The translations under genes were made by a program, and so were the position numbers. The notes below the pieces were generated by a model. That model searched no databases, was not told where the DNA came from, and saw nothing but the letters and a program-made list of their open reading frames with translations. From Candidatus Saccharimonadales bacterium (GTDB lineage Bacteria > Patescibacteriota > Saccharimonadia > Saccharimonadales > DASZAF01), in NCBI GenBank assembly GCA_035480055.1, contig DATIIB010000007.1:4360-68359 (forward strand): a DNA stretch of 64,000 nucleotides. Reading direction: 5' to 3'. Below are positions 1 through 41,687 of this stretch, piece by piece. The stretch's first letter is position 1; the number at the start of each line of letters is the position of its first letter.

Positions 1-658
1 CGCTTCTTCGTTGCCACTGACATGTGGCGCAAAACCGCCTTCATCACCAACGGTTGTTCCGTAATTACGGGCAACCAACTCTTTTTTGAGAGCCATAAAG
101 ACCTCCACGCCAATGCGCATGCGGTCGTCAAATGTTTTGCCACCTTTGGGGACGATCATAAATTCTTGAATGTCGGTGCTGCCAGCAGCGTGTTTTCCAC
201 CGTTAATTAGGTTCATCAGCGGCATAGGAAGAGTGAAGGTGGTGTTGTCGATCAACGAGCCAATGTAGCGGAAAAGTGGTTGGCCCTTGCTCTTTGCTGC
301 TGCGTGCGCGGCGGCCAGAGAGACTGCCAAAATGGCATTCGCACCGAGATTGCTCTTGTTTTCAGTACCATCCAGTTCGATCATGATGCGATCCAATTCG
401 AATTGGCTATACGCGTCTTGACCAATCAGCGCTGGGGCGATTTTTTCAGCCACATTGCGAACCGCCTGGCTGACGCCTTTGCCGCCGAGCGCCTCACCGC
501 CATCACGAAGTTCGAGCGCTTCGCCGCTGCCAGTGCTGGCGCCCGATGGAACTGCTGCGCGACCGAGTGTGCCGTCTTCAAGGATAACATCGGCTTCAAC
601 GGTGGGCATGCCGCGTGAGTCAATAATTCTGCGAGGGATGATTTGAGTGATTTTCATA
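1..658 (-). CDS. eno: Enolase (phosphopyruvate hydratase), N-terminal ~219 codons; the C-terminal part lies beyond the left edge
   Basis: Absent from the supplied ORF track because it is open to the window edge. Reverse-strand translation from the ATG (complement of 656-658) reads [54 protein letters not shown]...[30 protein letters not shown]...[13 protein letters not shown]...FMIVP...GDEGGFAP. These are textbook enolase N-terminal and barrel motifs. Confidence 0.93.
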
Positions 659-681
659 ACGTATTATATTGTGCTCCTTTT
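655..681 (-). repeat. Arm B of a 27-nt inverted repeat that includes the eno start codon (AAAGGAGCACAATATAATACGTTATGA)
   Basis: The reverse complement of 655-681 matches 867-893 at 26 of 27 positions. It contains AAGGAG, a TATAAT hexamer and the ATG. Confidence 0.8.
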
Positions 682-866
682 ACCTAAATTAGCAAGACTC
701 TGGGATGATGCGGGTAGACAACTTGGGGCCACAGCCCGGCCGGTAACAGCGGAGAAGCAGACGTCGCGTCATCCCGCGCAGGCAAAATGTCCACTTTCAT
801 TTTGCCGGGTCTGCAAGCCGCTGTTACCGAGCGGAGCGTCATGCTAAAAGCTTGCCAAAACGTAGG

Positions 867-893
867 AAAGGAGCACATTATAATACGTTATGA
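867..893 (+). repeat. Arm A of the same 27-nt inverted repeat, including the gpmA start codon (AAAGGAGCACATTATAATACGTTATGA)
   Basis: Direct reading. TATAAT at 879-884 ends 5 nt before ATG 890. AAGGAG lies 17 nt upstream of the ATG, which is too far for a normal SD. Confidence 0.8.
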
Positions 894-4448: not shown

Positions 4449-4467
4449 TTTCTTACTAGATGCAAAT

Positions 4468-4497
4468 AAAAACTCTCGGATAACACCGAGAGTTTTT
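4468..4497. terminator. Bidirectional intrinsic terminator between convergent genes
   Basis: A 12-bp stem (AAAACTCTCGG.../...CCGAGAGTTTT) with a 6-nt loop. An A-run lies on one side and a T-run on the other. Confidence 0.8.
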
Positions 4498-4513
4498 ATT
4501 TGCAAAAGACTTG

Positions 4514-5803
4514 CTACTGGCTCACCTTGAACCACTGCGAGTTGTCCACAAAGGCGTGAATGCCAGAACCTGCCGAGACCGCAATCTGCAGCGAAGCTTT
4601 TTTGACATTAATCGAGCTGGGCTTGTAGGCAAGGTTGATGTCCTCCACGAACGTCGACCGTTCACCGCTTTTATACTGGCCAGAGATCCAGTTGCCGCTT
4701 TGATCGTATTCATCGATGTAAAAGGTGACTTCACCGCTGGTTAATTTGTCCACATTCAGGAAGTTTTTGAGCATATAGCTGGCGGTCGAATCAACGTCCA
4801 ACTTTGGTCCAAAAAGATGGACGCTTTTTCCAGTTGCTGCTGTTAGTTCGATCGCATTGGTTGGGCTGGGGTAGCTGCCATTGTTGGCGGTATTTTTGAT
4901 CACTTGTTGCGGGGCATCGGTCGTCCAGCCGTCGGCGATACCATTATCAAAACTATTATTCGGCATCATATTTACCGTGCTAGCCACCGTGCCGGCCGAC
5001 ACATTAACCACTGGCAAATTTTGCGCTTGCACGTAGGCGGCGATTTGCTTGAGGTTAGCGGTGCTGTACTCATAATCGTCTGGGTTAGCACTCGGGTTGG
5101 CCTTGATGTCGTGAAGAACCAAGATGAGCCAAGCATTATTTTGTTTGGCTTGGTCGATATACGTTTTGACTTGAGCGACCGTCACGCCAGCTTGCACCTG
5201 TTTGACATACAGCAAATAGTCATTGTACGGCCAGAGATTGTTACTCTCGGTGTCCCAAAACGGGCGATGCGAGGCATAGTATTTGGAAATACCAGCCAAC
5301 ACTGCATTGTTGTAGTCGCCATAGGGCGTGGCAAACGAGGTTGGATTGAAGCCATGCTGCTGCAACGTCGCTTTGCTATTGACCAGTTCATTCGTAAGAC
5401 GTGTGGCATTGACCTGCGTGAGCTCAGGGTGAGTGACGCTATGTGAGCCAATCTCCCAGTGGTAGGTGTTTTGCAGTTGCGTGACCTGTGGCCAGGTCAT
5501 ATACTTGGCACCTGGGTTGGCAGGACACGTACCTGTAGTCCCCACGCAGCCGCTAATCACATAATCTGTGCCGGTAAAGCCATATTGCGCAAGCGCAGGC
5601 GCGGCGTTTTGTACCGCAGTGGTTAACCCGTCATCAAAGGTAAAGGAGACTTTGGCCGTAGGTGTCGGATTCATAACTGCGGCCTTTGCTGGTGTTGCAC
5701 CTCCAATAGCGAGACCGCCAGCAGCCACTACCATACAGAGGCACGCTGCGATTCTCAGGCGTATCGCCTGCATAGTGAGATTAGTAGTAAAAGGTAAGGC
5801 CAT
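4514..5803 (-). CDS. Secreted/anchored polysaccharide deacetylase (CE4/NodB) with a C-terminal carbohydrate-binding-like domain
   Basis: 429 aa from ATG 5803, with AAGGGGA upstream. N-terminal hydrophobic anchor IAACLCMVVAAGGLAIGG; NodB motifs VSFTFDDG and GSHSVTHPEL; the C-terminal ~140 aa are beta-rich. Confidence 0.85.
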   Translation of the reverse strand: MALPFTTNLTMQAIRLRIAACLCMVVAAGGLAIGGATPAKAAVMNPTPTAKVSFTFDDGLTTAVQNAAPALAQYGFTGTDYVISGCVGTTGTCPANPGAKYMTWPQVTQLQNTYHWEIGSHSVTHPELTQVNATRLTNELVNSKATLQQHGFNPTSFATPYGDYNNAVLAGISKYYASHRPFWDTESNNLWPYNDYLLYVKQVQAGVTVAQVKTYIDQAKQNNAWLILVLHDIKANPSANPDDYEYSTANLKQIAAYVQAQNLPVVNVSAGTVASTVNMMPNNSFDNGIADGWTTDAPQQVIKNTANNGSYPSPTNAIELTAATGKSVHLFGPKLDVDSTASYMLKNFLNVDKLTSGEVTFYIDEYDQSGNWISGQYKSGERSTFVEDINLAYKPSSINVKKASLQIAVSAGSGIHAFVDNSQWFKVSQ

Positions 5804-5816
5804 ATGTTCCCCTTTG

Positions 5817-7616
5817 TTATTGATGCAATATTTTTTGGATCTGTGCATACCCAGGACGTGGCGCTAAGTCGCTCCCAAACAACCCATCTTTGCCAAATTG
5901 GATAGCGCCAGCATCATCTTTCCAGACATCATAGCGGTCTGCGAGAGTCCAGGTTCGCCAGGCAATACAGTTTGGCTCAGTAATGCAGGCGTTGAATACC
6001 GCTGCGTACTGCGCACCTTGAACCGCATCGCCCTCGTCGTTATAAACATCCATTTCGGAGATTTGAGTTTTAAACCCTAAGGCGCCAAGCTGGGTAATGT
6101 GGCGCTTCAGGACCACGGGATCGATCTTGTCACCGGCTTCATATACATGTGCCTGAAATCCAACGCCAAGATGGTCTATCGGCACGCCACAGGCAATGAG
6201 CTGCGCTTTCAGAGTGGTCATGAGCTGCACAAATGTGTCCCAGCGCTCACCGTCAAACTCCAGACCATACTCGTTAATAAAGAGCTGCGCATCAGGGTTA
6301 GCCTGGTAGGCAGCGCGGAAAGCTTTGGCAATATAGTCTTCGCCCATTGCCTGATACCATTTGTGGTTGCGCAGGATATTCCCTTGGCTTGGATCAAAAG
6401 TATCAAAGTCGGCCAGCGGCTCGTTTACCACATCCCATGACCCTACTTTGTTGCCAAAATGTTGCATCACGGTTGTAATGTGTTGCTCCATCAGCTGCGC
6501 AACGTGCTGTTTATCAGCGGCAGTTGCCACCGGTAACGCCGTCAACCAGTGGGGATTTGCTTCGCCAAACACCAAAGCGTGCCCGTGAACTGCAATGCCA
6601 TTTTGCTCGGCCAGGTGCACCAAAAGATCGGCCTGCTGAAAGTAATAATGGCCTTCCTGTGGTTGCAAAAACTGCATCTTCATGGCGTTTTCGGGTGTCC
6701 AACTTCCTACCTGATTACTATCCAAAGCTAACGCCGCATATGCCGGATCGGTGGTCACAGTTGTGGGCGCCATTGCCGCACCGACCGTAAAATCTGCGCG
6801 CTTTTTGTGAGCCAAATACTGTAATCCATCTGGATCATGGGCCGGCGCCGTCAGATCACTGGTGGCGACCATCTTGACCGTACCGCCTTGCTGAGCTTCG
6901 GCAGTAAGGCCGCTCAGCAGCCAACTATCCTGGGCGCTATCGACACCAAACCACAGCCGATTGCTGGCAAGAATATCTTTACTGTCCAGCGTTCCAAGTT
7001 GCGTCCCGCCAGCACTCAGCTGCAGCATTTCACCTTGACGAGTAAGAGTGAGCGCTTGCTGCGAAGCATTTGGTAAAGCAAACGTCTGCGTCGCTGCAGC
7101 GGTTTGACTCGTGCCATCCCAGGTAGTAGCAATAAGCTGGGTGCGGGTGACTGCCAGGCGGACGCTCTTTCGTTCCATCCTAAACTCATCAGCGATAATC
7201 GGCACTTCTCCGTATAATTGCAGCGATGCTGGTTTGTCCGTTACATCTTTTAGCGTCGCTGTGAGCGCAAAGTCGCCGGTCTCCTCAAGGTGCATGCCGA
7301 GATTAATCGGCGGATTAGGCTGGCCGCCCGAACCATCTTGCTCAACAATCGAAAGGTCAGTTTTGGCAACACGAAGCCCCTCTGCCGTGGAACTTACTCC
7401 TGGCACAAAGCGCCAATCGGCCGCGGCCAGCAACGATACTTTATGCGGAACATTTGTATTTTCACCATCTCCCATGCCTGGCTGCTCCCATACGGTTTTG
7501 CTGGCACAGCCTACAAGGAGACCCAGACCTAAGAGCCCAAGCACACCAAAACTAAGAAACCTTCTTGGCCTAATGACTTGATGCCATCTTGCCCATACAC
7601 TTTTCATGCAAACCAT
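5817..7616 (-). CDS. GH10 family glycoside hydrolase (endo-1,4-beta-xylanase-like) lipoprotein with an N-terminal extra domain
   Basis: 599 aa. Lipobox LLGLGLLVGC; GH10 signatures WDVVNEP, FINEYG and TQISEMDV. The ~260-aa N-terminal domain is not recognised. The start could be 7616 or 7607. Confidence 0.85.
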   Translation of the reverse strand: MVCMKSVWARWHQVIRPRRFLSFGVLGLLGLGLLVGCASKTVWEQPGMGDGENTNVPHKVSLLAAADWRFVPGVSSTAEGLRVAKTDLSIVEQDGSGGQPNPPINLGMHLEETGDFALTATLKDVTDKPASLQLYGEVPIIADEFRMERKSVRLAVTRTQLIATTWDGTSQTAAATQTFALPNASQQALTLTRQGEMLQLSAGGTQLGTLDSKDILASNRLWFGVDSAQDSWLLSGLTAEAQQGGTVKMVATSDLTAPAHDPDGLQYLAHKKRADFTVGAAMAPTTVTTDPAYAALALDSNQVGSWTPENAMKMQFLQPQEGHYYFQQADLLVHLAEQNGIAVHGHALVFGEANPHWLTALPVATAADKQHVAQLMEQHITTVMQHFGNKVGSWDVVNEPLADFDTFDPSQGNILRNHKWYQAMGEDYIAKAFRAAYQANPDAQLFINEYGLEFDGERWDTFVQLMTTLKAQLIACGVPIDHLGVGFQAHVYEAGDKIDPVVLKRHITQLGALGFKTQISEMDVYNDEGDAVQGAQYAAVFNACITEPNCIAWRTWTLADRYDVWKDDAGAIQFGKDGLFGSDLAPRPGYAQIQKILHQ

Positions 7617-7742
7617 CCCGTATTTAGCTTAAGGTTACACCTACAACAAAATTTATACAACATATTCCTTGGTTTACGCGCTATTTACCTCTGTTAAATT
7701 AAAAATATCTGTAACCTTACCATTGCATATCATGATTTATCT

Positions 7743-7760
7743 ACAACAATAAATTGTTGT
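7743..7760. promoter_or_regulatory. Perfect 8-2-8 palindrome ACAACAAT-AA-ATTGTTGT in the GH10/GT2 divergent intergenic region (possible operator)
   Basis: Direct reading. Additional ACAACA/TGTTGT copies lie at ~7651-7656 and ~7766-7773. Confidence 0.4.
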
Positions 7761-7845
7761 GAAATGTTGTTGTCTTCGTGATCAAGCAGTGCTACTATTT
7801 GGCGTAAGGGCAAGCATTATAGAGGATAGAGGGGGATGTTTTTTC

Positions 7846-8061
7846 ATGGCAAAACTTCGCGCAGGTGAGGGCGTACTGACGGCGAGCGTGGGTCTTTTCG
7901 CAGCGCCGCTTAACGGACGAGATGCGGGATTCTTTATGTTCGTGGCTTTGGTAAGCATCTTTTGCTGGGTCACGGTCATTATCACCACCATCCTCAGACA
8001 TGGCGCAAAACATATCTACCGAAAAACCAAATCCAAGCGCAATGAAACCGTAGACGTATAG
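7846..8061 (+). CDS. Small single-pass membrane protein preceding the GT2 synthase
   Basis: 71 aa from ATG 7846, with SD GAGGGGGA 9 nt upstream. One TM (FFMFVALVSIFCWVTVIITTIL) is followed by the basic tail RHGAKHIYRKTKSKR. It ends 15 nt before the GT2 start. Confidence 0.55.
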   Translation: MAKLRAGEGVLTASVGLFAAPLNGRDAGFFMFVALVSIFCWVTVIITTILRHGAKHIYRKTKSKRNETVDV

Positions 8062-8076
8062 CTTAAAGGAGAACGT

Positions 8077-9357
8077 ATGGACATTGGGGGAATAATTTTT
8101 TACTTATTTGCGGTCGTCAGCACGGTTTATGTCGTGCATTTGGGCGTCTATCTTACTGGCGCAAACTTTTACGATATTTGGCAGTTTCGGCGTCAACGAA
8201 CCAAGCAGGGTTACCCATCGACAGCAAAGCTTCCGTTGGTGACAGTCGCTATCTCCGCGCATAACGAGGAAAAGGTTATTACTCGTTGCCTTGAGTCAAT
8301 TCGTCATAGCACCTATCCGCATGTTCAGACGCTGGTCGCTGACGATGGCTCCAAAGACGCAACCTATAAAATCGTCAGGCGGTACATTAGGCACCATCCG
8401 CGTCAAAACATTCATCTCGAAGCCATGCCCAAAAATATGGGTAAAGGCCGGGCGCTTAATTTTATTCTGACCCGTTTTGCCAAAGGCGATCTGGTAATGA
8501 CTTTGGATGCCGATTCAATCTTGGCCCCAGACGCGATTGCCAATGCGGTCAGCTATTTTAATGATCCGACGATTGCCGGCGTGGCCGCGAATGTGCAGAT
8601 CATCGAAGAACCAAGCGTGCTTGGAGTGCTCCAAAAGTTTGAGCACATGATTGGCTATCGTTCTAAAAAGACCTATTCGTTGATTAACTGTGAGTTTGTG
8701 ATTGGCGGTGTGGCGTCTACCTACCGGATGGATATTCTGCGCAAGGTTGGATTTTACGACACGGATACCGTGACTGAAGATATCGGCCTTAGCATGAAAA
8801 TTGTCAACCAAGGCAACCGTGCTCATCGAATTGTCTATGCTGTTGATGTGCGCGCAATGACCGAAGGTGTAGATCGCTTTCGCGCCTTGGTCAAACAACG
8901 TTATCGCTGGAAGTACGGCAGCTTACAAAATATCATCAAATACTACCATCTCATCGGAAATAATAATGCTGATTTTACCTTGACGCTTACTTTTTACCGC
9001 ATGCCTATGGCAGTACTGAGTGAGATCGCGTTGCTCGCAGCACCGCTGATTTGGGGGTATACGATATATGTTACTTTATCGCAGCATTCGCTCGCGCTGG
9101 TGATTGGCGCTTATCTGACGATTACGGTATATACCATGATCACCCTTTGGTGGGATGAACACGCCGGGTTCAAAGATCGGCTACGTTTGAGTCTGTTCGT
9201 ACCTGTTGCCTACTTTGTGTTTTATATCATGGATTTTGTGCAGCTGATTGCTATTTTGCGTTGTCTGGCCAAAATGCATCAGTTACTCACGCGTAAAGAT
9301 GTCGGCGGCACATGGGCCTCGCCGCGACGGATTGGACGCGAAGTTCGGGCAGGATAA
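8077..9357 (+). CDS. Processive family-2 glycosyltransferase (PgaC/IcaA/NodC-like beta-glycan synthase)
   Basis: 426 aa with SD AAGGAG. GT-A motifs VTVAISAHNEE, VADDGSKD and TLDADS; processive-synthase Q-x-x-R-W motif QRYRWKYG; TM helices at both ends. Confidence 0.88.
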   Translation: MDIGGIIFYLFAVVSTVYVVHLGVYLTGANFYDIWQFRRQRTKQGYPSTAKLPLVTVAISAHNEEKVITRCLESIRHSTYPHVQTLVADDGSKDATYKIVRRYIRHHPRQNIHLEAMPKNMGKGRALNFILTRFAKGDLVMTLDADSILAPDAIANAVSYFNDPTIAGVAANVQIIEEPSVLGVLQKFEHMIGYRSKKTYSLINCEFVIGGVASTYRMDILRKVGFYDTDTVTEDIGLSMKIVNQGNRAHRIVYAVDVRAMTEGVDRFRALVKQRYRWKYGSLQNIIKYYHLIGNNNADFTLTLTFYRMPMAVLSEIALLAAPLIWGYTIYVTLSQHSLALVIGAYLTITVYTMITLWWDEHAGFKDRLRLSLFVPVAYFVFYIMDFVQLIAILRCLAKMHQLLTRKDVGGTWASPRRIGREVRAG

Positions 9358-9361
9358 TTAT

Positions 9362-11140
9362 ATGGTCAAGAAGAAGCACTCACCTCCCAAAACACCACCT
9401 CGCCGCAAGTTGGTGCGCAGACTTATCAGAAACCCAATCATTGCGATTTTCCCTATCGTCGTGCTGCTATGGTGCGGCTGGCAGTACTATCTGTCGGGCA
9501 GTCGTCATATTAACGCTGCGGCACATAATTTGCTGCCCGGTGGCAATATGCATATCAAGCATGGCAGCAGCCTTCCTGATGGTTGGCAACTCAAAAAAGA
9601 AGGGGCGCTTCAAGCCAGTAGTGCAAGCGTCGAAGGATACGCCCACGGACGAGCGGTCGATGTACATGTCGGTCAGTATCTTAGCGGAGATGTCGCTTTG
9701 GAGACGCCAAAGGTGACGCTATCCCCAAAGACCACCTATCTTTTTAAGGGCTACTACGTGACGACCGGGCCTTTTACATTGCTGGTACGGTATTTCTACC
9801 AAAACGGAACGAGCCGCCTGGAGACAATCCAGCAATATCCCGCTCAAAATGACCCTTGGTCGACCGTGAGCCATGCCTTTACCAGTGGTGGAGATATTAC
9901 GGCGGTGCAGTTTGTATATCGGATGAGTGCAAATGGCGATGTCAAAATTGGCGCGACCTACCTGGCGTCTAAAAATGATCATCTGTACATTGCACCCCAG
10001 CCGAACTTGCCTCAAAATCTTCTGGCCAACAGTAGTTTGGCTGCGCCAGATCCCGACCAAACTGATTCGCCGCAGTATTGGACGCATTATCAAAGCGGCG
10101 CGAATCAAAGTACATTCGCGTACTCGCACGCTCAGCAAGGCTCCTCCCTGCGAAGCGAAGTCCATGACTACAAAGGTGGCGAGGCTAAGTGGCAATTTTA
10201 TCCGCTGACTGTGCAAGCAGGCCAAAGTTTTTGGTTCAGCGTGGATTACCAGAGCACCAGTCCGGTTGAGTTGACGGCAGAGTATGAATTGGCCAATGGT
10301 AATCGTCAGTATGACACCGCCAGGACGCTCGATCCGGCAGGCGACTGGACGCACACTACCGCCCAATTTGAAGTGCCCGCAGGTGCCACAAACATGTTTG
10401 TCTCGTTGGTCCAGCATCACAATGGCACGCTCGCTACCAAGAACTACTATTTAGGAGAAATCACCCGACCTGGCCCACGACGCTTTGCGCATCCACTTGT
10501 GTCGGTGACCTTTGATGATGGCTGGCAATCAAGCTACTACAACGGCGCTCGCCTGCTCGATCAATACGGCTACAAAGGAACCTACTATCTCAATTCCTCG
10601 ACCATTGATACCGGCATTTTTATGAGCAAGCCGCAGCTTCTGGACCTGCAGCGACGCGGGCATCAGTTAGCCGCGCATGGTGACGAGCATGTTGATATGA
10701 CTTCGATCAGTGGACCGCAGATTGATGTGGAACTCAAGCGGACCGCCGAGTATCTGACGCAGCTGCATGTGCAGCACGCCGACTTTGCGACGCCCTATGG
10801 CAAATCAGACGCCGAGGTCCAAGCGTACGCGCGCGCCTACTATCAAAGTCACCGCGGAACCGACGACGGGCTTAATACTAAACAAAACTTTGACCCTTAT
10901 AACCTCAAGGTTGTCTTTATCACCAAAGACACGCCTGCGCAAACTATTAGCGAAGCGCTAGCCAACGCAGCCGAATATAATGGCTGGCTGATTCTGGTCT
11001 ATCATCGGATCGAAGATAAGGTGATCAGCTCCACCACCATCACGCCAGCCACCTTTACCACCCATCTGGAGCTTATCAAAAAAAGTGGCATCCCTGTCGC
11101 GTCAGTCGGGCAAGCGTTTTCAGAGCTTTCGTCTCAATAG
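9362..11140 (+). CDS. Membrane-anchored polysaccharide deacetylase (CE4) with two N-terminal carbohydrate-binding-like domains
   Basis: 593 aa from ATG 9362, 5 nt after the GT2 stop, with AGGA upstream. TM IIAIFPIVVLLWCGW, two ~150-aa beta-sandwich-like segments, then NodB motifs VSVTFDDGW and AAHGDEHVDM. Confidence 0.85.
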   Translation: MVKKKHSPPKTPPRRKLVRRLIRNPIIAIFPIVVLLWCGWQYYLSGSRHINAAAHNLLPGGNMHIKHGSSLPDGWQLKKEGALQASSASVEGYAHGRAVDVHVGQYLSGDVALETPKVTLSPKTTYLFKGYYVTTGPFTLLVRYFYQNGTSRLETIQQYPAQNDPWSTVSHAFTSGGDITAVQFVYRMSANGDVKIGATYLASKNDHLYIAPQPNLPQNLLANSSLAAPDPDQTDSPQYWTHYQSGANQSTFAYSHAQQGSSLRSEVHDYKGGEAKWQFYPLTVQAGQSFWFSVDYQSTSPVELTAEYELANGNRQYDTARTLDPAGDWTHTTAQFEVPAGATNMFVSLVQHHNGTLATKNYYLGEITRPGPRRFAHPLVSVTFDDGWQSSYYNGARLLDQYGYKGTYYLNSSTIDTGIFMSKPQLLDLQRRGHQLAAHGDEHVDMTSISGPQIDVELKRTAEYLTQLHVQHADFATPYGKSDAEVQAYARAYYQSHRGTDDGLNTKQNFDPYNLKVVFITKDTPAQTISEALANAAEYNGWLILVYHRIEDKVISSTTITPATFTTHLELIKKSGIPVASVGQAFSELSSQ

Positions 11141-11776
11141 TTACTGCAGCTCAAAGACCGCCACCGGGCGTGTACAAGTCCCATGCTCGCCCATCTCAAA
11201 CAATCCAAGCTGAGTATAGATACTATGGAACTGCGACAAGGCTGGCAAAGTAGCAAGCTCAACTTGGGTCGTACGAGTCACAAACCGCGTAAAGGTAATG
11301 TGCGGCTTGAAGAGTTCGCCGACTTCGTCGTAGCCGTACGTTTCGAGGTTGTGATGAGCCACGCCGGTAGTTTGCGGGAGCCAGTCAGCCAAGGTATGCC
11401 CTACCGGATCTTTGGTTCGTAGCCCATGCCTCAGCGGATTCAAGCCAGCAATTACTCGTTCCTGCAACGCAATTATCTCCGACGTTTTGTGGTAAAAGAC
11501 CTCAAACATTCCTTCGGTGAAGTTGTGACCATAGTGACTTGCTTGCAGTTGCAGCGGGCGTGTCTGGCGGGCGATTCCTTGCAGGCGCGAGAATGTTTCT
11601 TGCAGTTGACCAGATAGAATGTTCAGCATATACAGCGAAAGGTGCGGGTAGAGATGGTCGGCTTGCAAGGTAAACTCCGTCCCCAATGGTTTCAGTTGGC
11701 GGCTCACCGCAATCGACGCATCGCGCACAGCTGCCGGAGGCAGCAAAACAACATCATAGACAGGAAGTTCGTTCAT
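11141..11776 (-). CDS. 2H phosphoesterase superfamily protein (LigT / cyclic phosphodiesterase-like)
   Basis: 211 aa. It has two H-x-[ST]-x motifs with appropriate spacing: YPHLSLY and KPHITFTR. Confidence 0.6.
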   Translation of the reverse strand: MNELPVYDVVLLPPAAVRDASIAVSRQLKPLGTEFTLQADHLYPHLSLYMLNILSGQLQETFSRLQGIARQTRPLQLQASHYGHNFTEGMFEVFYHKTSEIIALQERVIAGLNPLRHGLRTKDPVGHTLADWLPQTTGVAHHNLETYGYDEVGELFKPHITFTRFVTRTTQVELATLPALSQFHSIYTQLGLFEMGEHGTCTRPVAVFELQ

Positions 11777-11788
11777 GCTTACGGCCGT

Positions 11789-12823
11789 CTACTTTTGAGG
11801 AGGCCGATCTGGTACCGGTGGAAGCTCCGATGCCACCGGCGGAACGACCTTGTGCGGGAGCAACTTGGCAAGCACCAACACTCCCACGCCCAGCACCACT
11901 ACAGCAATGGCGTATTCCAGCCACACCGTGCGCACTTGGTGAGTGAGTAGTTGAATGACCGACGTCACCTTAGCTTGCAGCAATTCGTTTTGTTGCGTCG
12001 CAGCGGTGAGCTTGGCGATCGCTTTGCGAAGCGCAAAGTCGCCAAACCAGGCCAACAAACCGCTACTTATACCGACCGTTACTGCACCAATGCCGACACG
12101 GCGCAGCGCAATCTTTTTGGTCTGATCCAACAGAATAATACCCGCCGCCGCCAACAATGCCGCGATGCCGGTGGCATAAATAGCCAGCACCGCGCTGTGA
12201 TAGGCTGCTGGAACGCCGTGGAACTGCTGAGGGATGGTTTGACCCTGATTATTCTTGAGCGTATCAGCGGTCAGCGTAGGCTGCGACAACGAGCCATTCA
12301 CGTTCAAAATGTCATGCTTCGCTTGAGCCACCGCCGTGGGAATATCAAAACCTGTCGGCACGCAGGTCATCGTAAAGGCATTCAGATCTGTGGGCACTGT
12401 GGTGCAGGTGGGCAACGAAGTGAGACGCTGCTGAACATAATTGGCGATATTGGTCGCCAAATTCTCTCGCGCCCCATTAATATCGATACTAAACTGCGGC
12501 GACGGCGTCTTGCCCTTCAGCCAGTCAAACGTGCCCTCAATAATCTGGTTGGCATCGCTGCGCAACAAAGACGCCGGAAAGGCTTGCTGAATGGCTGATT
12601 GAATCTGTGGTTGCTCAATCGGAATGTTATTGGTTTGATTGCTTTGCTGCGCAAGCACGTCGTGAACCAGCGAATCGTAAATGCCACTTTTGTCTAAGGC
12701 ACCTTCGATGGTATGTGGAGTGGTCAGTACTACCTGAAGGCTCAGCAAAAGGCCGAAGCTAAACAACGTGGCAGAAAAAACTGAATACAGAAGGGTGACT
12801 GCGACTCGGCGCATAAAATGCAT
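11789..12823 (-). CDS. Membrane protein of unknown function
   Basis: 344 aa. An N-terminal TM, a ~200-aa extracytoplasmic region, 3-4 C-terminal TMs and a Pro-rich tail. No family recognised. Confidence 0.6.
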   Translation of the reverse strand: MHFMRRVAVTLLYSVFSATLFSFGLLLSLQVVLTTPHTIEGALDKSGIYDSLVHDVLAQQSNQTNNIPIEQPQIQSAIQQAFPASLLRSDANQIIEGTFDWLKGKTPSPQFSIDINGARENLATNIANYVQQRLTSLPTCTTVPTDLNAFTMTCVPTGFDIPTAVAQAKHDILNVNGSLSQPTLTADTLKNNQGQTIPQQFHGVPAAYHSAVLAIYATGIAALLAAAGIILLDQTKKIALRRVGIGAVTVGISSGLLAWFGDFALRKAIAKLTAATQQNELLQAKVTSVIQLLTHQVRTVWLEYAIAVVVLGVGVLVLAKLLPHKVVPPVASELPPVPDRPPQK

Positions 12824-12844
12824 ACGTATAGTGTACGCTAGATT

Positions 12845-13720
12845 TTACTGTGTCACAATCTGCTTCCACGGCCCGTCAGGGACTTTGGACGCAGGCACTA
12901 ATGACCAATCGGTCGTGTCCACATCTTGGAGATGCAAATAATCATGGACTGCCGGCGATACATCGAGGCCAGCCTTGGCGCCCCACGTATTACGAAAGGC
13001 GCTGTTGCCAAATACATAGTCCACATCGTCTTCGCCAAGCGGCCCCGCGTCTTCCCACTGCGCATAGACGACCTGGCCATTGTGACGGATCATCACCCAG
13101 CTGTTTTTGCACCACGAGCGGTTCGCATCGGTCTGCACGGCAGTAGGGAGACATTTTTGCGCCGACGCTTTGCGTTTGCCCTTGGCATCGAAATCATTAT
13201 ATGGCAAAGCGATGTAGAAAGGATTTTCCTTTGGCTTAAAAGCTGCTGGCCACCAACCATTTCGGGACTGAGGGGTGTCTGCGCCACCAAAGTGCTGTTG
13301 CCATTGGTCGTCCCAAGCGCTCGCGACATTGGTAATGTAATCATTTTCGCTATCGGCCGGTTCGCCAACCCAAAAAAAGGTTGTAGTGATATGCGTATGC
13401 GTCCAGTCGCCAGAGGATGAGTTGCTGCTGGAAGAACCTGCCAAGCCGGTTGGAGTTGATTTGGAATTTGTAAGCGGCGCCATACTCACAAGTGTTGTCA
13501 GTGGGACAGACAGTGGATGTAACAAGCCATACAGAGCTGAGTGCCCCGACCTTGCAGGCGCTAAAGCCTGCGCGCTTAAAGCGACAACGCTCACAACAAT
13601 AATCGCCGCCGCTAGTCCGCTACTCAAAAGACGCCGCCCGCGACTGTAAAAGCGTCGCGGGAGAGGCGTCTTGAGCGAAGGATGCAGGTACTTGGCTTTA
13701 GAGCTGCGGTTGAATCTCAT
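12845..13720 (-). CDS. Secreted protein, possibly with an RlpA/expansin-like double-psi beta-barrel domain
   Basis: The start is uncertain. The track uses GTG 13756; ATG 13720 still overlaps the upstream gene by 23 nt. A signal-like LLSSGLAAAIIVVSVVALSAQALA is followed by TTFFWVGEPA, NPFYIALPYND, and YAQWEDAGPLGEDD..GLDVSPA, which resembles DPBB proteins. Confidence 0.45.
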   Translation of the reverse strand: MRFNRSSKAKYLHPSLKTPLPRRFYSRGRRLLSSGLAAAIIVVSVVALSAQALAPARSGHSALYGLLHPLSVPLTTLVSMAPLTNSKSTPTGLAGSSSSNSSSGDWTHTHITTTFFWVGEPADSENDYITNVASAWDDQWQQHFGGADTPQSRNGWWPAAFKPKENPFYIALPYNDFDAKGKRKASAQKCLPTAVQTDANRSWCKNSWVMIRHNGQVVYAQWEDAGPLGEDDVDYVFGNSAFRNTWGAKAGLDVSPAVHDYLHLQDVDTTDWSLVPASKVPDGPWKQIVTQ

Positions 13721-16001
13721 TAAGCGCCTGGTCAACAGTTTCAACTGTGACACCACTCTGCTTAATGTTGTTCAACTCTGCATCAAGGTTGGCAGGAGTC
13801 ACTGCATAGGTTGGGTCAGCAGCTGCAGGGTCAACTTCGTGGTAAACCAGCACCAACCAGGTCTTGTTGGCGATCGCCTGATTAACCCATGCCTGAACCA
13901 TGGCAGGAGTGGTAGTGTTCTCGACATTCTGTACTTTAATGTTGTAGATGTCGAAGCTGTCTTTACTGTTAAAGCCAACGTCGGTTGAACGGTGCGAGCG
14001 GTAGAACTTCTTGATCTCGGTAATGACACTACTGTTGTAGGCGCCGTATGGAGTGGCGAAGTTGTTGGCCACACCAGGGGTTCCAAACCAGCTGCGGAGT
14101 TGGTTTTGCGAACCGCTCAGCTCAGCGTCGATCTGGGCAACGGTCAAAGTGGTGAGGTCAGGGTGAGTCATAGTGTGTGCTGCGACTTCGTTACCCGCGC
14201 TCTTCCAGGCAGTCATTTCAGCAAGAGTCATGTAGTCTGGGTAGCCATCGATTGTTGGCTGAGTCAGCATGTAACCGGTTGCAACCATGTTGTACTTCTT
14301 GAGTAATGGCAAGCCATTGGTCTCAATAGTCTTCCAGGCATCGTCGAAGGTCAGGCTGACCATGGCACGATTGAACTGCGCAGGAGCATATGGCGCAAAG
14401 CTGAAGTCATCGGTTTGGACAAAGCCAACTTTGGTAAGCGCTTGGAAGATAGTGATACTCTTGGCACCAGCTGGAGCGGTAAACTGTGCCTTGACCTGTG
14501 CCCATGCACTTGGGCTCGCAGAAGCGGTTGCCAGGTAGAAATACTGGACGGTGCCGTCGGTCATGGTGACCTGGGCATCAACTTCGCTATCAACGCTGGA
14601 TTCATACCAGTTGCTGTATTGGTACTGTGCCCCTGGAGTAATGGCAATGTCGTCGAAGTACCATTTGGCGTCACCGTTGGTGTATGCACTCATGGTGGTC
14701 TTGACACTGTGGCTGCCGGTGTGGCCAGTGTTCTCAACAGTTGTGGTGTGAGTGTTAGTACCCCAGCCGTCTGCGCGCCAGTTGGTTGGGAGGCCGCTGG
14801 TCAGTGTTTCAACTGAAGGGTTCAAAACCAGGTTGGTTGCTGGTGGCGTTACTGGAGGAGTCACAACTACGTTATTAACGGTGACAGCTACTTCAGTTGA
14901 AGTGGTACTGAGGTTGGCTTGGTTGGTGGCAACTGCAGTCAGTTTGTGAGCGCCGTTGGTTACTTTGGTGGTGTCCCAGTTATAAGTGTAAGGTGCGGTC
15001 GTGAGGGCGCTGCCGAGATTTACGCCGTCCAGCTTGAACTGTACCGAAGTAATACCTTGCGCGTCGCTCGCAGCAGCGGTAATGGCTTGAGTGCCAGAGA
15101 CAGTTGCGTTATTTGCAGGAGCGCTGAGCTGTACGGTTGGAGGAGTTGGATTGTTCACCGTCACGGTAGCGGCAGTAGAAGTAGTCGTGAGGTTTGCAGC
15201 GTTGGTTGCTACAGCGGTCAAGGTGTGCGTTCCATTGGTGGCCGTTTTGGTGTCCCAAGTGGTGCTGTACGGAGCGGTCGTATCAGCTGCACCGAGGTTG
15301 GTACCATCGAGCTTAAACTGTACCGAAGTGACACCAACTGCATCACTGGCAGTTGCGGTGATTGTTTGCGTACCGCTGACGGTGGCACCAGTAGTTGGAG
15401 CGGTCAGTTGTACGGTTGGCGCAGTTGCGACAGGAGGAACTGGAGTGACAGGAGGAGTCGTAGGAGTACCGGTGCCAAAGCTGTAATCGTCAACAGTCAA
15501 AGAGCCGTTCGCTTGGATGTAGTGGAAAAAAGTCACGCTCTTGGCGCCGGTAGGAGCCTTGAAGCTAAAGCTCGCCTGTTTCCAATCGGTGCTGGCGGCA
15601 AAATCGCCCTGCCATTTGTACTGAGTCTTGCCAGCGGTAGTGGTGATCACTGCATCGATGCTGTTCTTGATACCACTTTTGTACCAGTCGCTAAAGGTGT
15701 AGGTTGTGCCAGGAGTGACAGTGACTGGAGAAAAGTACCACTTTGCGTCTCCGCTGGTGTAGTTGCTCATCTTCACGGTTGCACTGTGGCTGCCGGTGTG
15801 GCCAGTGTTCTCGTACGTGTAGGCAGTAGTGTTAGTACCCCAGTTATCTTTAAGCCAGCCAGTTGGGCTACCGCTCGTTGCGTCTTCAAAAGAAGCGTTG
15901 GCAACCAGGTTAGCGTCAGCGGCAAAAGCTGTGGCGATTGGTGATTGAACCGCTGCGACAACAACCAAGATTGCGCCGATTAATGATAGTACTCGCTTCA
16001 T
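13698..16001 (-). CDS. Large secreted modular polysaccharide deacetylase: CBM-like, two Ig-like domains, CBM-like, then CE4
   Basis: 767 aa with SD AGGAG. Signal peptide ...AVQSPIATAFA. Two paralogous ~150-aa domains share (N)TGHTGSHS...GDAKWYF. There is a tandem Ig-like repeat. C-terminal NodB motifs are VSLTFDDAW and AAHTMTHPDL. Confidence 0.88.
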   Translation of the reverse strand: MKRVLSLIGAILVVVAAVQSPIATAFAADANLVANASFEDATSGSPTGWLKDNWGTNTTAYTYENTGHTGSHSATVKMSNYTSGDAKWYFSPVTVTPGTTYTFSDWYKSGIKNSIDAVITTTAGKTQYKWQGDFAASTDWKQASFSFKAPTGAKSVTFFHYIQANGSLTVDDYSFGTGTPTTPPVTPVPPVATAPTVQLTAPTTGATVSGTQTITATASDAVGVTSVQFKLDGTNLGAADTTAPYSTTWDTKTATNGTHTLTAVATNAANLTTTSTAATVTVNNPTPPTVQLSAPANNATVSGTQAITAAASDAQGITSVQFKLDGVNLGSALTTAPYTYNWDTTKVTNGAHKLTAVATNQANLSTTSTEVAVTVNNVVVTPPVTPPATNLVLNPSVETLTSGLPTNWRADGWGTNTHTTTVENTGHTGSHSVKTTMSAYTNGDAKWYFDDIAITPGAQYQYSNWYESSVDSEVDAQVTMTDGTVQYFYLATASASPSAWAQVKAQFTAPAGAKSITIFQALTKVGFVQTDDFSFAPYAPAQFNRAMVSLTFDDAWKTIETNGLPLLKKYNMVATGYMLTQPTIDGYPDYMTLAEMTAWKSAGNEVAAHTMTHPDLTTLTVAQIDAELSGSQNQLRSWFGTPGVANNFATPYGAYNSSVITEIKKFYRSHRSTDVGFNSKDSFDIYNIKVQNVENTTTPAMVQAWVNQAIANKTWLVLVYHEVDPAAADPTYAVTPANLDAELNNIKQSGVTVETVDQALNEIQPQL
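14871..15422 (-). repeat. Tandem duplication of a ~92-aa Ig-like module inside the CE4 gene
   Basis: aa 194-284 (PTVQLTAPTTGATVSGTQTITATASDAVGVTSVQFKLDG...TVNN) versus aa 288-377 (PTVQLSAPANNATVSGTQAITAAASDAQGITSVQFKLDG...TVNN). A related module occurs in the protein at 21179-22762. Confidence 0.85.
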
Positions 16002-16143
16002 TATGATGTCTCCTACTTAGACTGCTCGTTTGTCTCATCAAACTACTATGTTGCACAAAAGTCAATACTATTCGTAATAGCGCTTAAGGTGTTATGAAGC
16101 ATAAGCGTTGTATTGACTTTAGGGTTAGAATATGAAAATATAG

Positions 16144-16171
16144 TTGACTTTTGTACTATAAAGTATATAAT
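16144..16171 (+). promoter_or_regulatory. Near-consensus sigma70 promoter (TTGACT-16-TATAAT) for the micro-ORF/CE4/GT2 operon
   Basis: TTGACT at 16144-16149 and TATAAT at 16166-16171. A second TTGACT lies at ~16113. Confidence 0.6.
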
Positions 16172-16209
16172 GCGGTTAAGTATCAAAGACCTAACGGGAG
16201 TAAGGCAAC

Positions 16210-16386
16210 ATGTACGAACAAACCGGCGGAATGGGCGGCTTTATCGCTCCAGCAACAACAGCAGTAATCACTCTACCTTTGACAGGTGGTAACCTTCTTG
16301 TGCAAATCGCTATTGCGATCGCAGCTGGTCTGACAGTATGGGGCATCCTCAACGCTCGTCAGCGCAAACTGCAAAAAGCACAGTAG
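16210..16386 (+). CDS. 58-aa micro-protein consisting essentially of an LPXTG-type cell-wall sorting signal
   Basis: Below the track's size cutoff. ATG 16210, GGGAG upstream, TAG at 16384-16386. Translation: MYEQTGGMGGFIAPATTAVITLPLTGGNLLVQIAIAIAAGLTVWGILNARQRKLQKAQ. This reads as LPLTG, then a 21-residue hydrophobic stretch, then an R/K tail. No N-terminal signal peptide. Confidence 0.55.
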   Translation: MYEQTGGMGGFIAPATTAVITLPLTGGNLLVQIAIAIAAGLTVWGILNARQRKLQKAQ

Positions 16387-16409
16387 TTTCCTTTATATAA
16401 GGACACACC

Positions 16410-17372
16410 ATGAAACTGAGTAAAAAAGTGGGCACGGTGGGAACACACTCAGCTCGTGCAAAGCGCACTAAGCCACGCCGTTTTCGACGTGGTTTAGTGA
16501 CAACCTTAGCGGTCCTGGTGAGCTTATTGCCAGTTGGCTCAATGGGCTATCTTGGCTGGGCCGTATATCGGAATGTCTTTCACGATAGCCGTCCGACCGC
16601 TTCTCTTTCGTATGTAAATCGAAGTATAACTGGCCTGACGCCGTTTTCCACTCCCATGGTCAGCGTCACCTTCGACGATGGCTGGGAATCTGCGTACAAA
16701 AATGCAGCCCCAGTGCTGAGTCAGTACAACATCCCGTCGACTTTTTATATCATTACCGATACTTTTAACGACCCGCAGTACTTATCAACTGATCAGATCA
16801 AATCGCTCCTGGCTAGTGGCCACCAGATTGAATCACACACCGTCACGCACCCTAACCTCACCCAGGTCAACGACACGCAGCTAGGTAAAGAACTGAGCAA
16901 TTCCAAGAATACGCTGCAAAAATTAGTTAATGGCCCGGTCACCGACTTCTCTTCTCCGCTTGACGCCTATAACGATCATGTTATTGCCGCGATTAAGGCA
17001 CAGGGGTATCGCTCGCACCGTACGACGGACGCAGATCTTACCCGCGACCCTTACAATCTGAACCTGGCCAGCACCTTTAATCCGTACCGCATTCAAGCCT
17101 ACACAGTGCGCAACACCACAACCACTCAGCAGCTCCAAGATTATCTGGCATACGCCCGCGAAAATAAAGCTTGGGTCGTTCTGGTGTACCACCAGGTAGA
17201 ATCCAGCAAGGTGGAAGTACCCGAGAAAGACCGCTACGCCGTATCGCTTAATGCCTTTAAAGAGCAGATGAAGTTGGTGAATGAGAGCAACATGCGAGTT
17301 GTCACCATGGAGCAAGCGCTTGACGCTATTGCCAAGCAACCTGCGGTACCATCTCAAGGAGACACCAAATGA
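16410..17372 (+). CDS. Membrane-anchored polysaccharide deacetylase (CE4)
   Basis: 320 aa with SD AAGGA. TM LVTTLAVLVSLLPVGSMGYLGWAVY; NodB motifs VSVTFDDGW and ESHTVTHPNL. Confidence 0.88.
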   Translation: MKLSKKVGTVGTHSARAKRTKPRRFRRGLVTTLAVLVSLLPVGSMGYLGWAVYRNVFHDSRPTASLSYVNRSITGLTPFSTPMVSVTFDDGWESAYKNAAPVLSQYNIPSTFYIITDTFNDPQYLSTDQIKSLLASGHQIESHTVTHPNLTQVNDTQLGKELSNSKNTLQKLVNGPVTDFSSPLDAYNDHVIAAIKAQGYRSHRTTDADLTRDPYNLNLASTFNPYRIQAYTVRNTTTTQQLQDYLAYARENKAWVVLVYHQVESSKVEVPEKDRYAVSLNAFKEQMKLVNESNMRVVTMEQALDAIAKQPAVPSQGDTK

Positions 17373-18436
17373 GTAAGCAAAAACCAATGATCGCCTTAAT
17401 TATCTCTGGCTACAACGAAGAAAAAGTGATTGCCCGGACGTTGGAATCAGCCATCACTGCTGGCATGCGCCGCGAAGATATCTATGTGGTGAGCGACAAC
17501 TCCAGCGACCAAACCATGGCTGTCGCGCGCACCTTACTGCCTGACGTCAATGTCATGGAAGTGGAACGGAGCGGTAAAGGCTTGGCTCTGAGTAAAGCTG
17601 CTGCTGCATTTGGTTTGACCGAACGCTATCGTTGGATTCACGTTGCTGACGCCGATGGCGGTTTTGCGCCGAACTACTTCCGCGTACTGCGCCGTGAACT
17701 ACGCGTTAAGAACGCAGCAGCCACCGGCTACATCACCAGCACCAAAAACTCCATGATTGGGCAATACCGAGTGATGGAATACACCGTGGGTATGGAAGTG
17801 GTCCGCCGCTTTCAATCATTTGGCCAAGTGGTCAGCGTGATTCCTGGACCAAGCTCTTGCTTCCGCGCAGATGTGTTTAAAAAGCTCGACTTTGCCAGCG
17901 GCGCTTTAGCCGAAGACTTCTGCGTCACCTTGCAGATTCACCGCCAAAAACTTGGTCCCATTCAATATATCGAAGACGCGGTGGTCTTTACGCAGGACCC
18001 GCAAACCTTCCGCGACTTTACCCGCCAGATTCGTCGGTGGAACATCGGCATCTTGCAAGGTATCAAAATGTACAAGATCGGTTTGCGCCCACAACGCATC
18101 GACGCGTACCTGACGTACCAAGTTATGCAGAACCTGATGATGTTCTTTACCTACGCCATCTGGCTACCCTACCTGGCTTTTAGCCAGCACAACTTTGCCT
18201 TATTCCCGCTGGCCTTTCTGACTGACTTCAGCCTAACGCTGCTTCTTACCACGCTCACAGCCAAACGCGCCAAACGATGGGATATCCTGGAGTCGTTGCC
18301 CAATATTTACGGGCTTCGTTGGGTTGCCCTATGGGTCTTTATGTCAGCCTTCGTAAAGGTGATGATCTTCAATCAGCACCGCGTTGGCCGCAGTAATGGC
18401 ATCTGGCAACCGGTCGCTCGTAAAGCGGTTAGCTAG
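17369..18436 (+). CDS. Family-2 glycosyltransferase (processive synthase-like) with C-terminal TM helices
   Basis: 355 aa, with an ATGA overlap with the CE4 gene. Motifs: IALIISGYNEE, VVSDNSSD, HVADADGG, and Q-x-x-R-W-like RQIRRWNIG. Confidence 0.82.
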   Translation: MSKQKPMIALIISGYNEEKVIARTLESAITAGMRREDIYVVSDNSSDQTMAVARTLLPDVNVMEVERSGKGLALSKAAAAFGLTERYRWIHVADADGGFAPNYFRVLRRELRVKNAAATGYITSTKNSMIGQYRVMEYTVGMEVVRRFQSFGQVVSVIPGPSSCFRADVFKKLDFASGALAEDFCVTLQIHRQKLGPIQYIEDAVVFTQDPQTFRDFTRQIRRWNIGILQGIKMYKIGLRPQRIDAYLTYQVMQNLMMFFTYAIWLPYLAFSQHNFALFPLAFLTDFSLTLLLTTLTAKRAKRWDILESLPNIYGLRWVALWVFMSAFVKVMIFNQHRVGRSNGIWQPVARKAVS

Positions 18437-19499
18437 TTTTCGGCGTTTGGCGTCTTATAGACTTGAGGGCTTTCGGTGTCGCTACACCTACATGGTTTTT
18501 ATTCCCTGAAGATTGCAGCAGATGCACGGGCACAGCAGGCCCTCGGCTTTTCTCTAGCGCAACCCGTACCAATGCCCGCATGGCACGGACTCGTTGGAAT
18601 TTCCAACGGTGTTCAGCTTGCACACGAAGTTCGGCAACAGTTTGGCCGACATCGAGGCGCCGAGAGTTCGGCTCTTCCGATATCAATTCATCCATACCGC
18701 TAAATTCGGTCAGCAAGCGCAACACTTTTTTGGTCAGTTTGTTCATGCTGCGCGCCCGAATCCACCCATTCCCATCTTCGAGAGTGACCGCAATCGCTTC
18801 TTGCAAACGGTGAGTGAGCAACGCTTCTGGCTGCGGCGAGGGCTTTGGAGAGCGTGTCTGAAGCTCTGGTTGCTCGTCACTCGGCGGAATTGGCCACTGT
18901 GGCGGAGCTCCTCTTGGAGGCGGAGGTGTCGAAGCAACTGGCGCGCTTAAAACTGCAGGTGCATTCCGGTGCGCACCGGGAATTGCTACCGTGGGCGCAG
19001 TTCTGCGATACCCATACACCCGCTCTGGGAGTGCTGGCGGTTGAGTCTTGGCGTACACACCATCACGCACCTCGATGGTAACCCCTCTTCCTTTGGTTGT
19101 ATCTTCAATGGAGCGAATTTCACGCCCATTACCAAACAAGGCAGCCATGGCCAAACGCTCCCGAACACCTGGCGACATCTGCCGGAAATATTCGGCATCT
19201 CTGGCCAGCTCCGGATGTGCTTGCTGCACTGTCTCAGGCAGGCGGACATCGGCAATTAACCGGGCAGTCAGCGAGCCTATATTCTCGCTATGTCTTCCAA
19301 TCGGTGCGTCCACAATCTTATATTGAGGATTCGCTCTATCTGCTTGGCTCAATTCGCGAGCCCCAGGATCTCTGGGAATCTGCGTCTCGGGCTGCATGGC
19401 CTGAAAGGCGGCTTGTACTAATAACTGTTGTGTTCGTCGTACGGTCTGCGGCGTCACAGGGACGTCAAATTCAGACCGCCACGGTGCGGTATCAATCAT
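18429..19499 (-). CDS. Hypothetical protein with a central Pro-rich linker
   Basis: 356 aa with SD AAGGAG. It lies downstream of the sortase on the same strand. No signal peptide and no recognisable domain. Confidence 0.55.
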   Translation of the reverse strand: MIDTAPWRSEFDVPVTPQTVRRTQQLLVQAAFQAMQPETQIPRDPGARELSQADRANPQYKIVDAPIGRHSENIGSLTARLIADVRLPETVQQAHPELARDAEYFRQMSPGVRERLAMAALFGNGREIRSIEDTTKGRGVTIEVRDGVYAKTQPPALPERVYGYRRTAPTVAIPGAHRNAPAVLSAPVASTPPPPRGAPPQWPIPPSDEQPELQTRSPKPSPQPEALLTHRLQEAIAVTLEDGNGWIRARSMNKLTKKVLRLLTEFSGMDELISEEPNSRRLDVGQTVAELRVQAEHRWKFQRVRAMRALVRVALEKSRGPAVPVHLLQSSGNKNHVGVATPKALKSIRRQTPKTS

Positions 19500-41609: not shown

Positions 41610-41687
41610 GATGTCTGTCATAGGCCGTACGCTGCATGGCAGCTTGTGGCATGTTCCAAATTATACACCCGGGGTACAATCTTTATC

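Follow-up and report, generated by a model that had tools for sequence, protein, structure and literature searches.

In the 64,000-nucleotide (nt) stretch of Candidatus Saccharimonadales bacterium DNA analysed here (64 kb of contig DATIIB010000007.1, hereafter “the window”), the glycolytic genes eno, for enolase, and gpmA, for 2,3-bisphosphoglycerate-dependent phosphoglycerate mutase, are transcribed divergently, and their start codons are embedded in the two arms of a nearly perfect inverted repeat. The sequence of this locus and its comparison with related loci make it probable that the arms are back-to-back sigma70-type promoters and that both messages are leaderless or near-leaderless, with a leader of 0–3 nt. 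One promoter would drive eno leftward and the other would drive gpmA rightward. We suggest that the “leaderless” design is ancestral in the Saccharibacteria that have divergent eno and gpmA genes, and that the identity of the arms over 27–30 nt arose recently in the lineage of the window species, whether by inverted duplication, by gene conversion over a short tract or by template switching. The practical effect would be that two consecutive enzymes of glycolysis (leading from 3-phosphoglycerate to 2-phosphoglycerate and on to phosphoenolpyruvate) share a core promoter and a 5′ end. The actual start sites, the leaderless translation and the mechanism of copying are what we infer from these data.

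A repeat search of the window confirmed the inverted repeat and revealed it as the longest spaced one in the 64 kb: its arms (651–680 and 867–896) are 30 nt long, 93% complementary (28/30) and 186 nt apart, and the arm-to-arm identity beyond these 30 nt falls sharply to about 55%, with indels. As the original prediction had claimed, the stretch running from AAGGAG through TATAAT to the ATG and one base further is the same at 26 of 27 bases on the minus strand at 654–680 and the plus strand at 867–893, and each TATAAT stands 5 nt from its ATG. In the window, the 27-mer AAAGGAGCACAWTATAATACGTTATGA has these two positions and no others, also when up to three mismatches are allowed, and it found no match in 100 shuffles, the chance expectation being none. 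Searches of the 64 kb with the 27-mer, with its 20-mer core and with a pattern of the −35 box plus spacer (≤3 mismatches) gave no third copy; upstream of other central-metabolism genes, where it had been proposed to look for the motif, no further copy came to light in the window either, and the phosphoketolase–acetate kinase operon (xfp-ackA) lacks the 27-mer. Among the 169 related loci that were fetched, only two contigs of the same species (L081 and L082) match, the 20–27-mer core being absent from the other 167, and an exact scan of a metagenome contig collection for GAGCACAWTATAATACGTTATG returned no matches.

L081 and L082 come from two independent Logan assemblies, and their arms are identical at 27 of 27 bases. 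Since the arm structure is present in two further assemblies, it is no assembly artefact. Over the 4160 and 3750 nt compared with these contigs, the window shows a single difference, at position 878 (T in the window, A in both others), and this sole polymorphic base is also the sole mismatch of the repeat. The T allele creates an 8-bp palindrome, ATTATAAT, which gives a perfect TATAAT on both strands.

Start codons and promoter layout

The GpmA protein of the window also matches dPGM models, its closest public sequences are just 75–79% identical to it, and the genomes nearest to the locus belong to Candidatus Saccharibacteria/Saccharimonadales. Because eno and gpmA are divergent and have a 232-nt intergenic region between them, each of them is the first gene of its transcription unit. 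Judging from the reading frames, both embedded ATGs are forced start codons. The ATG of gpmA is the first start after the stop and the only one before the catalytic RHGES motif; the ATG of eno has an in-frame TAA three codons upstream, the enolase N-terminus aligns with those of relatives at this point, and the next in-frame ATG would remove the conserved IIDSRG N-terminus. The host possesses ordinary sigma70-like promoters and ordinary Shine–Dalgarno (SD) sequences, and eno and gpmA make no use of the latter: an SD scan detected none 4–12 nt before ATG 890 or ATG 657. The AAGGAG of each arm stands 16 nt from the ATG, as opposed to 5–9 nt for the AAGGAG or AGGAGG of the SD-led genes in the window, in agreement with the earlier remark that it lies too far away for a normal SD.

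Read on the coding strand, each arm and the sequence in front of it consist of a −35 box TTGCYA, a 16-nt spacer with AAAGGAG at its end, the overlapping hexamers CACAWT and TATAAT, ACGTT and the ATG (Table 1). The −35 boxes belong to the CTTGC(C/T)AA sequences that had been noticed at the same distance on both sides; they are indeed equidistant. Three overlapping −10 candidates can be distinguished in each arm, namely CACAWT with a 16-nt spacer, CAWTAT with an 18-nt spacer (from a consensus scan) and the perfect TATAAT at 21 nt, and the distance of 16–18 nt between −35 and −10 that is taken to mark a sigma70 promoter is found for the first two and not for TATAAT.

Transcription usually starts about 7 nt past the −10 hexamer, at a purine that follows a pyrimidine (PMC12641261). 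In both arms, RNA polymerase would begin at the G that precedes the ATG by three bases, 7 nt after CACAAT, which fits the conserved geometry and the C-G-T context of G887 and G660; the alternative start would be the A of the ATG itself (A890 and A657, in a T-A context), 6 nt after TATAAT. The resulting leader of 0–3 nt would carry no SD, and the ribosome would load on the 5′-terminal AUG by the leaderless route. AAGGAG would lie upstream of the predicted start, within the promoter spacer, so that it would not be in the RNA and could not act as a ribosome-binding site.

Several points weigh against this interpretation. TATAAT has 21 nt between it and the −35 box and a gap of just 5 nt to the ATG, which is short by the usual standard; CACAWT fits the consensus at only 3–4 of 6 positions, so that either hexamer may be the one used. 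The perfect identity at spacer positions that promoters rarely constrain could reflect a protein-binding site. Finally, the contig of the closest relative, L170, covers the gpmA side and the eno arm is off the contig; an enolase-based protein search for the eno side of L170 brought up just distant partial proteins with at most 71% identity.

Table 1. Features of the eno–gpmA locus, in window coordinates (promoter elements and start sites are predictions)
Feature	Position	Strand	Description
eno (enolase), N-terminal 219 codons	1..657	-	Runs off the window start; ATG 657..655; TIGR01060 at 1.6e-87
gpmA (2,3-bisphosphoglycerate-dependent phosphoglycerate mutase), 212 amino acids	890..1528	+	ATG 890-892; TIGR01258 at 4.9e-46, above cutoff
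Left arm	654..680	-	Putative eno promoter spacer (AAGGAG 679..674), -10 region, start site and start codon: AAAGGAGCACAATATAATACGTTATGA
Right arm	867..893	+	Putative gpmA promoter spacer (including AAGGAG 868-873), -10 region, start site and start codon: AAAGGAGCACATTATAATACGTTATGA
eno predicted -35, TTGCTA	690..695	-	Spacing of 16 nt to CACAAT and of 21 nt to TATAAT
gpmA predicted -35, TTGCCA	852..857	+	16 nt to CACATT, 18 nt to CATTAT, 21 nt to TATAAT
eno predicted -10 region, CACAATATAAT	663..673	-	CACAAT 673..668 (ends 10 nt before ATG) overlapping TATAAT 668..663
gpmA predicted -10 region, CACATTATAAT (CACAATATAAT in L081 and L082)	874..884	+	CACAWT 874-879, TATAAT 879-884
eno predicted transcription start	657..660	-	G660 (7 nt after CACAAT; 3-nt leader GUU) or A657 (6 nt after TATAAT; leaderless AUG), from promoter geometry
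gpmA predicted transcription start	887..890	+	G887 or A890
GC-rich self-complementary core	697..851		155 nt between the -35 boxes; not part of the promoters proper

Promoter elements in related loci and origin of the arm identity

The 169 related loci were fetched via the GpmA protein, and a divergent eno–gpmA arrangement was counted in 24 cases, including the window and L081/L082. The detailed comparison comprised 15 divergent loci, which represent 13 lineages besides the window species and have intergenic regions of 33–164 nt. On the eno side, a −10-like hexamer ends 6–10 nt before the ATG in 15/15 of these loci, and on the gpmA side it does so in all of them except for L055 (the AATAAT of L088 was read by eye). 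The hexamers often have a TGn extension, and no SD is found between the −10 and the ATG in any of the 15 loci. The two promoters read TGtTATACT-6-ATG and TGcTAAAAT-7-ATG in L136, TGcTAAAAT-6-ATG and TGtTAATAT-6-ATG in L169, and TATTAT-6-ATG and TATAAT-7-ATG in L056, and the eno orthologue of L086 has TTGGCA-17-TACTAT-10-ATG. Where gpmA is located apart from eno, as in most Nanosynbacter genomes, it lies within an operon and has a normal GGAGG 5–8 nt upstream.

Within the clade of the window species, the alignment of seq­uences upstream of gpmA (seven sequences) has an invariant CTTG in the −35 box, A.A.T in the −10 hexamer (which ends 9–10 nt ahead of the start codon), the T at −1 and the ATG itself, and a pyrimidine–purine step at −4/−3 is present in 7/7 orthologues, although the bases vary (CG in six, TA in L086). 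The corresponding alignment upstream of eno (five sequences) has an invariant G.A..AT, A.GTT and ATGAAAAT, with G at −3 and TT at −2/−1 the same in all five orthologues. We regard these invariant columns, on comparative grounds, as the footprint of a promoter whose transcript would begin 0–3 nt before the AUG. The phylogenetically conserved −10 is at the CACAAT position, which ends 10 nt before the ATG, and the perfect TATAAT is lineage-specific; therefore, the start may be the G at −3 and not the A of the ATG.

The original prediction had tied its reading in part to the conservation of the motif in related genomes. What is kept there are the promoter elements (the −35, the −10 and the start step), while the 27-mer, AAGGAG and TATAAT are not. 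The leaderless twin promoters that it proposed are well supported by sequence and comparison, that is, by the forced ATGs, the lack of an SD, the −10 conserved in divergent lineages and the enrichment of the same pattern across the window described below.

Two observations on the annotation and content of the related loci may be added. The gene calls for eno in L086 and L087 begin 11 and 4 codons before the ATG that aligns with other enolases (L086 2900–2933; L087 2967–2979); the L086 call crosses the predicted promoter, and both starts were probably mis-called owing to the missing SD. In L085 (340–1652), as well as in L083 and L084, two tandem His_Phos_1 (phosphoglycerate-mutase-like) genes adjoin eno: the eno-proximal copy of L085 is about 40% identical to the window GpmA and has TATAGT-6-ATG, and the distal copy, with 76% identity, follows at a distance of 20 nt, with GGGA or GGAG 6 nt before its ATG.

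The similarity of the two arms to each other has a different distribution from that of the promoter elements. Over the 23 nt that precede the ATG, the arms match at 22–23/23 positions in the window species as compared with 5–15/23 in other lineages, the cross-locus null being 8.1 ± 3.0, and these counts indicate that the long arm identity is lineage-specific. In L170, the closest relative (79% amino acid identity of GpmA), the gpmA promoter has AAGTGGGCATAATAGGGAACGTT-ATG and reads TTGCAT-16-CATAAT-AGGGAACGTT-ATG. It keeps the geometry of the window promoter and AACGTTATGACAAAAGG, has AAGTGGG in place of AAGGAG and contains no TATAAT. The gpmA genes of other relatives have AAGTGC or AAGTGG at the position of AAGGAG, and other sequences occur there on the eno side.

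A shorter similarity appears to be older than the long identity. The core AACGTTATGA is common to eno of four lineages and gpmA of two, and mainly through it the ancestral eno and gpmA promoters would match at about 16/27 positions (hand count). By the same kind of count, the 27-mer is about equally near to the gpmA promoter of L170 (19/27) and the eno promoter of L086 (18/27), which favours neither direction of copying. On the simplest reading of these comparisons, one core promoter would have been copied onto the other in recent times, on top of two promoters that were already similar. Quasipalindrome correction, template switching and short-tract gene conversion likewise perfect imperfect inverted repeats and would fit the sharp drop of identity past the 27–30-nt arm; however, the repeats at classic quasipalindrome hotspots are closer to each other than the eno and gpmA arms, which lie 186 nt apart.

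Alternative explanations and the core between the arms

It is rather unlikely that the shared 27-mer is the operator of a transcription factor co-regulating both genes over the −10/start region, with its identity kept by selection. Such an operator would accommodate the identity across the spacer and the discriminator (AAAGGAGCACA, ACGTT), which are weakly constrained by RNA polymerase, together with the sharp fall to about 55% identity in the flanks past 30 nt and the recurrence of AACGTTATGA in eno of four lineages and gpmA of two. Against it, an internal dyad is lacking in the 27-mer, where the best candidates pair at just 4/6 and 6/10 positions, and the 27-mer shows no convincing match to the consensus sites of cre/CcpA, Cra, HexR or CggR. 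No regulator gene adjoins the locus, the 64 kb hold no third copy with up to three mismatches, not even at xfp-ackA, and the relatives keep ordinary promoter elements only. The shared cis-regulatory or translational element that the original prediction had offered as its second option likewise finds no support, as AAGGAG lies in the spacer and is not conserved, the dyad is lacking and there are no other copies.

The sequence between the two −35 boxes differs from the arms in composition, with a GC content of 0.58–0.65 vs. 0.30–0.38. Compared with shuffled sequence, this core folds with z = −5.6 (plus strand) and −4.3 (minus strand) as RNA and with z = −5.1 as DNA, and its stems are formed by 736–752/818–834 and 766–789/798–821. 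A global alignment of the core with its own reverse complement scored 22 vs. a null of −8.6 ± 15, so it is not significantly palindromic overall and contains local stems only. Rfam yielded nothing for the arms or the core at the gathering threshold; with a permissive E-value it gave only a weak BSnc120 match, which scored 21.8 bits where 114 would be required. When the intergenic region was compared by BLAST with the window and all fetched loci, the core proved to be single-copy and without a homologue in the relatives, and it is absent from L170. A multi-copy element of the miniature inverted-repeat transposable or repetitive extragenic palindromic type was considered for the core and is unsupported, the core being single-copy in the available sequence. 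Unrelated palindromes lie at the equivalent place in L088 (385–490, z = −6.3) and L086 (2925–2975, z = −3.0), with no Rfam match and no other copies. Such elements may be neutral palindromic insertions, protein-binding platforms or supercoil-sensitive elements between the divergent promoters.

A more elaborate proposal, which we consider unlikely, is that the arms are held identical by ongoing gene conversion or by selection and that the core serves as a functional coupling device, such as a cruciform or supercoil sink, a regulator platform or a small RNA; the palindromes of L088 and L086 would then be its analogues.

It is very unlikely that the promoters of the two genes are located further upstream, possibly in the opposite arm, which would produce structured, antisense-overlapping leaders of about 215 nt, with AAGGAG as a distant ribosome-binding site or enhancer and the core as a regulatory leader. 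A weak promoter-like site on the plus strand (TTGAGT-16-TATATT at 643–670) and the perfect minus-strand TATAAT that the window allele provides at 882..877 could serve in this role, and the core, as stated, folds far better than shuffled sequence. Nevertheless, AAGGAG is 16 nt from the ATG vs. the 5–9 nt of the SDs in the window and is not conserved, and no stable hairpin is visible by eye in the 16 AT-rich nt that separate AAGGAG from the ATG (no fold was run on them). The core is absent from L170, is replaced by unrelated palindromes in other relatives and belongs to no Rfam family, and in several relatives the intergenic region of just 33–100 nt leaves no room for such leaders.

It is highly unlikely that the two arms bound an invertible segment as a phase-variable switch, or that they act simply as a recombination substrate flipping the 186-bp core. 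A 27–30-bp inverted repeat around a short intergenic segment has the recognition geometry of invertons, and this one is the longest spaced one of the window. However, both promoters sit within the arms and point outward, so that inversion would merely swap near-equivalent −35 boxes and switch nothing. The three assemblies agree in their orientation, a scan of 54 proteins of the window yielded no recombinase, and the targets would be essential glycolytic genes of a reduced genome.

Leaderless pattern in the window and its significance

The presumed leaderless layout of eno and gpmA can be placed among the other genes of the window. A Pribnow box at 6–8 nt from the start is accepted as the hallmark of leaderless genes in bacteria (“group C” of GeneMarkS-2, PMC6028130). 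When the 5′-most ATG of each of the 60 long open reading frames is taken as its start, which is an unbiased rule, 12 frames (20%) have a TAnnnT that ends 5–8 nt ahead of this ATG, vs. 5.1% of the 1942 other ATGs (Fisher p = 7.5e-5); with curated starts, the pattern is found at 13/58 (p = 9.5e-6). Further clear cases of the leaderless type are the genes starting at 12823, 28912 and 31039.

Several other loci of the window illustrate the range of layouts. The gene for an MFS (EmrB-type) transporter, with its ATG at 2146, has the textbook leaderless layout TTGCAG-17-TAGCAT-7-ATG, and the PfpI/DJ-1 gene on the minus strand, 88 nt from this divergent neighbour (2058–2146), has a classic leadered promoter, TATAAT-N19(AAGGAGG)-ATG; thus, both expression styles occur side by side. 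At 41637–41700, two divergent leaderless-looking starts are found, that of a DUF1801 gene on the minus strand (TATAAT-7-ATG, ATG 41652) and that of an unannotated gene on the plus strand (TACAAT-7-ATG, ATG 41688), and since these starts are only 36 nt apart, their promoters must overlap back to back. The phosphoketolase (XFP) and acetate kinase operon at 24331–27836, a second central-carbon module, has a TACAAT that ends 10 nt before its ATG.

The remaining content of the window may be outlined briefly. A perfect 19-bp hairpin between convergent genes at 4461–4504 (TGCAAATAAAAACTCTCGG / CCGAGAGTTTTTATTTGCA, with a 6-nt loop) is probably a bidirectional terminator. A dense cell-envelope and glycan cluster occupies 4517–19499, with four polysaccharide deacetylases, two GT2 glycosyltransferases, a GH10 xylanase-like protein and a Big_7/CBM surface protein, and it is followed by a sortase (19593–20324) and a Big_7/fn3 protein (21179–22759). 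A nickel superoxide dismutase (Sod_Ni, 7.4e-46) is encoded at 58190–58579, and a tRNA-Gln(CTG) at 57769–57843 on the minus strand.

The proposed twin promoters have counterparts in several known systems. The leaderless genes of Actinobacteria and Deinococcus-Thermus (“group C” of GeneMarkS-2; M. tuberculosis, D. deserti) likewise have a −10 a few nt before the ATG, no SD and a place as the first gene of the unit, and they form a sizeable minority in those genomes, as do the approximately 20% of starts in the window. The differences are the phylum, Saccharibacteria/Patescibacteria, and the position of the conserved hexamer 9–10 nt before the ATG, which predicts a leader of 2–3 nt and not of 0 nt. 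Among the papers it covered, our literature search brought up no account specific to leaderless expression in Saccharibacteria, the Candidate Phyla Radiation (CPR) or Patescibacteria.

With ordinary divergent sigma70 promoter pairs, the locus shares two outward promoters in one intergenic region, the −35 and −10 boxes of which form short inverted repeats. In contrast to such pairs, its identity extends over 27–30 nt and includes the spacer, the discriminator, the start codon and the next base, against the 5–15/23 matches of other lineages. In the bidirectional (pseudo-symmetrical) promoters of bacteria, one symmetrical −10 region fires both ways (PMC10268837, PMC12825309). There, too, sequence symmetry gives divergent transcription, and the window allele ATTATAAT reads as TATAAT on both strands; however, the eno and gpmA promoters would be separate sites about 211 bp apart. 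We conclude that the mechanism is known and ordinary, and that there is modest novelty in meeting it in Saccharibacteria and in the perfect duplication between two genes for successive glycolytic steps.

Saccharibacteria have reduced genomes and small ribosomes, and to our knowledge there are almost no transcription start data for them. The presented analysis provides sequence-level evidence that, in these members of the CPR/Patescibacteria, a fair share of the genes, among them those of core glycolysis, are expressed in a leaderless or near-leaderless manner. This matters for the annotation of gene starts, as the annotated eno of at least one relative apparently begins 11 codons too early and runs through its own promoter, and also for the choice of promoters in the emerging genetic systems of the phylum. 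The twin promoter itself would be a clear example from nature of two divergent genes whose promoters have undergone “homogenisation”.

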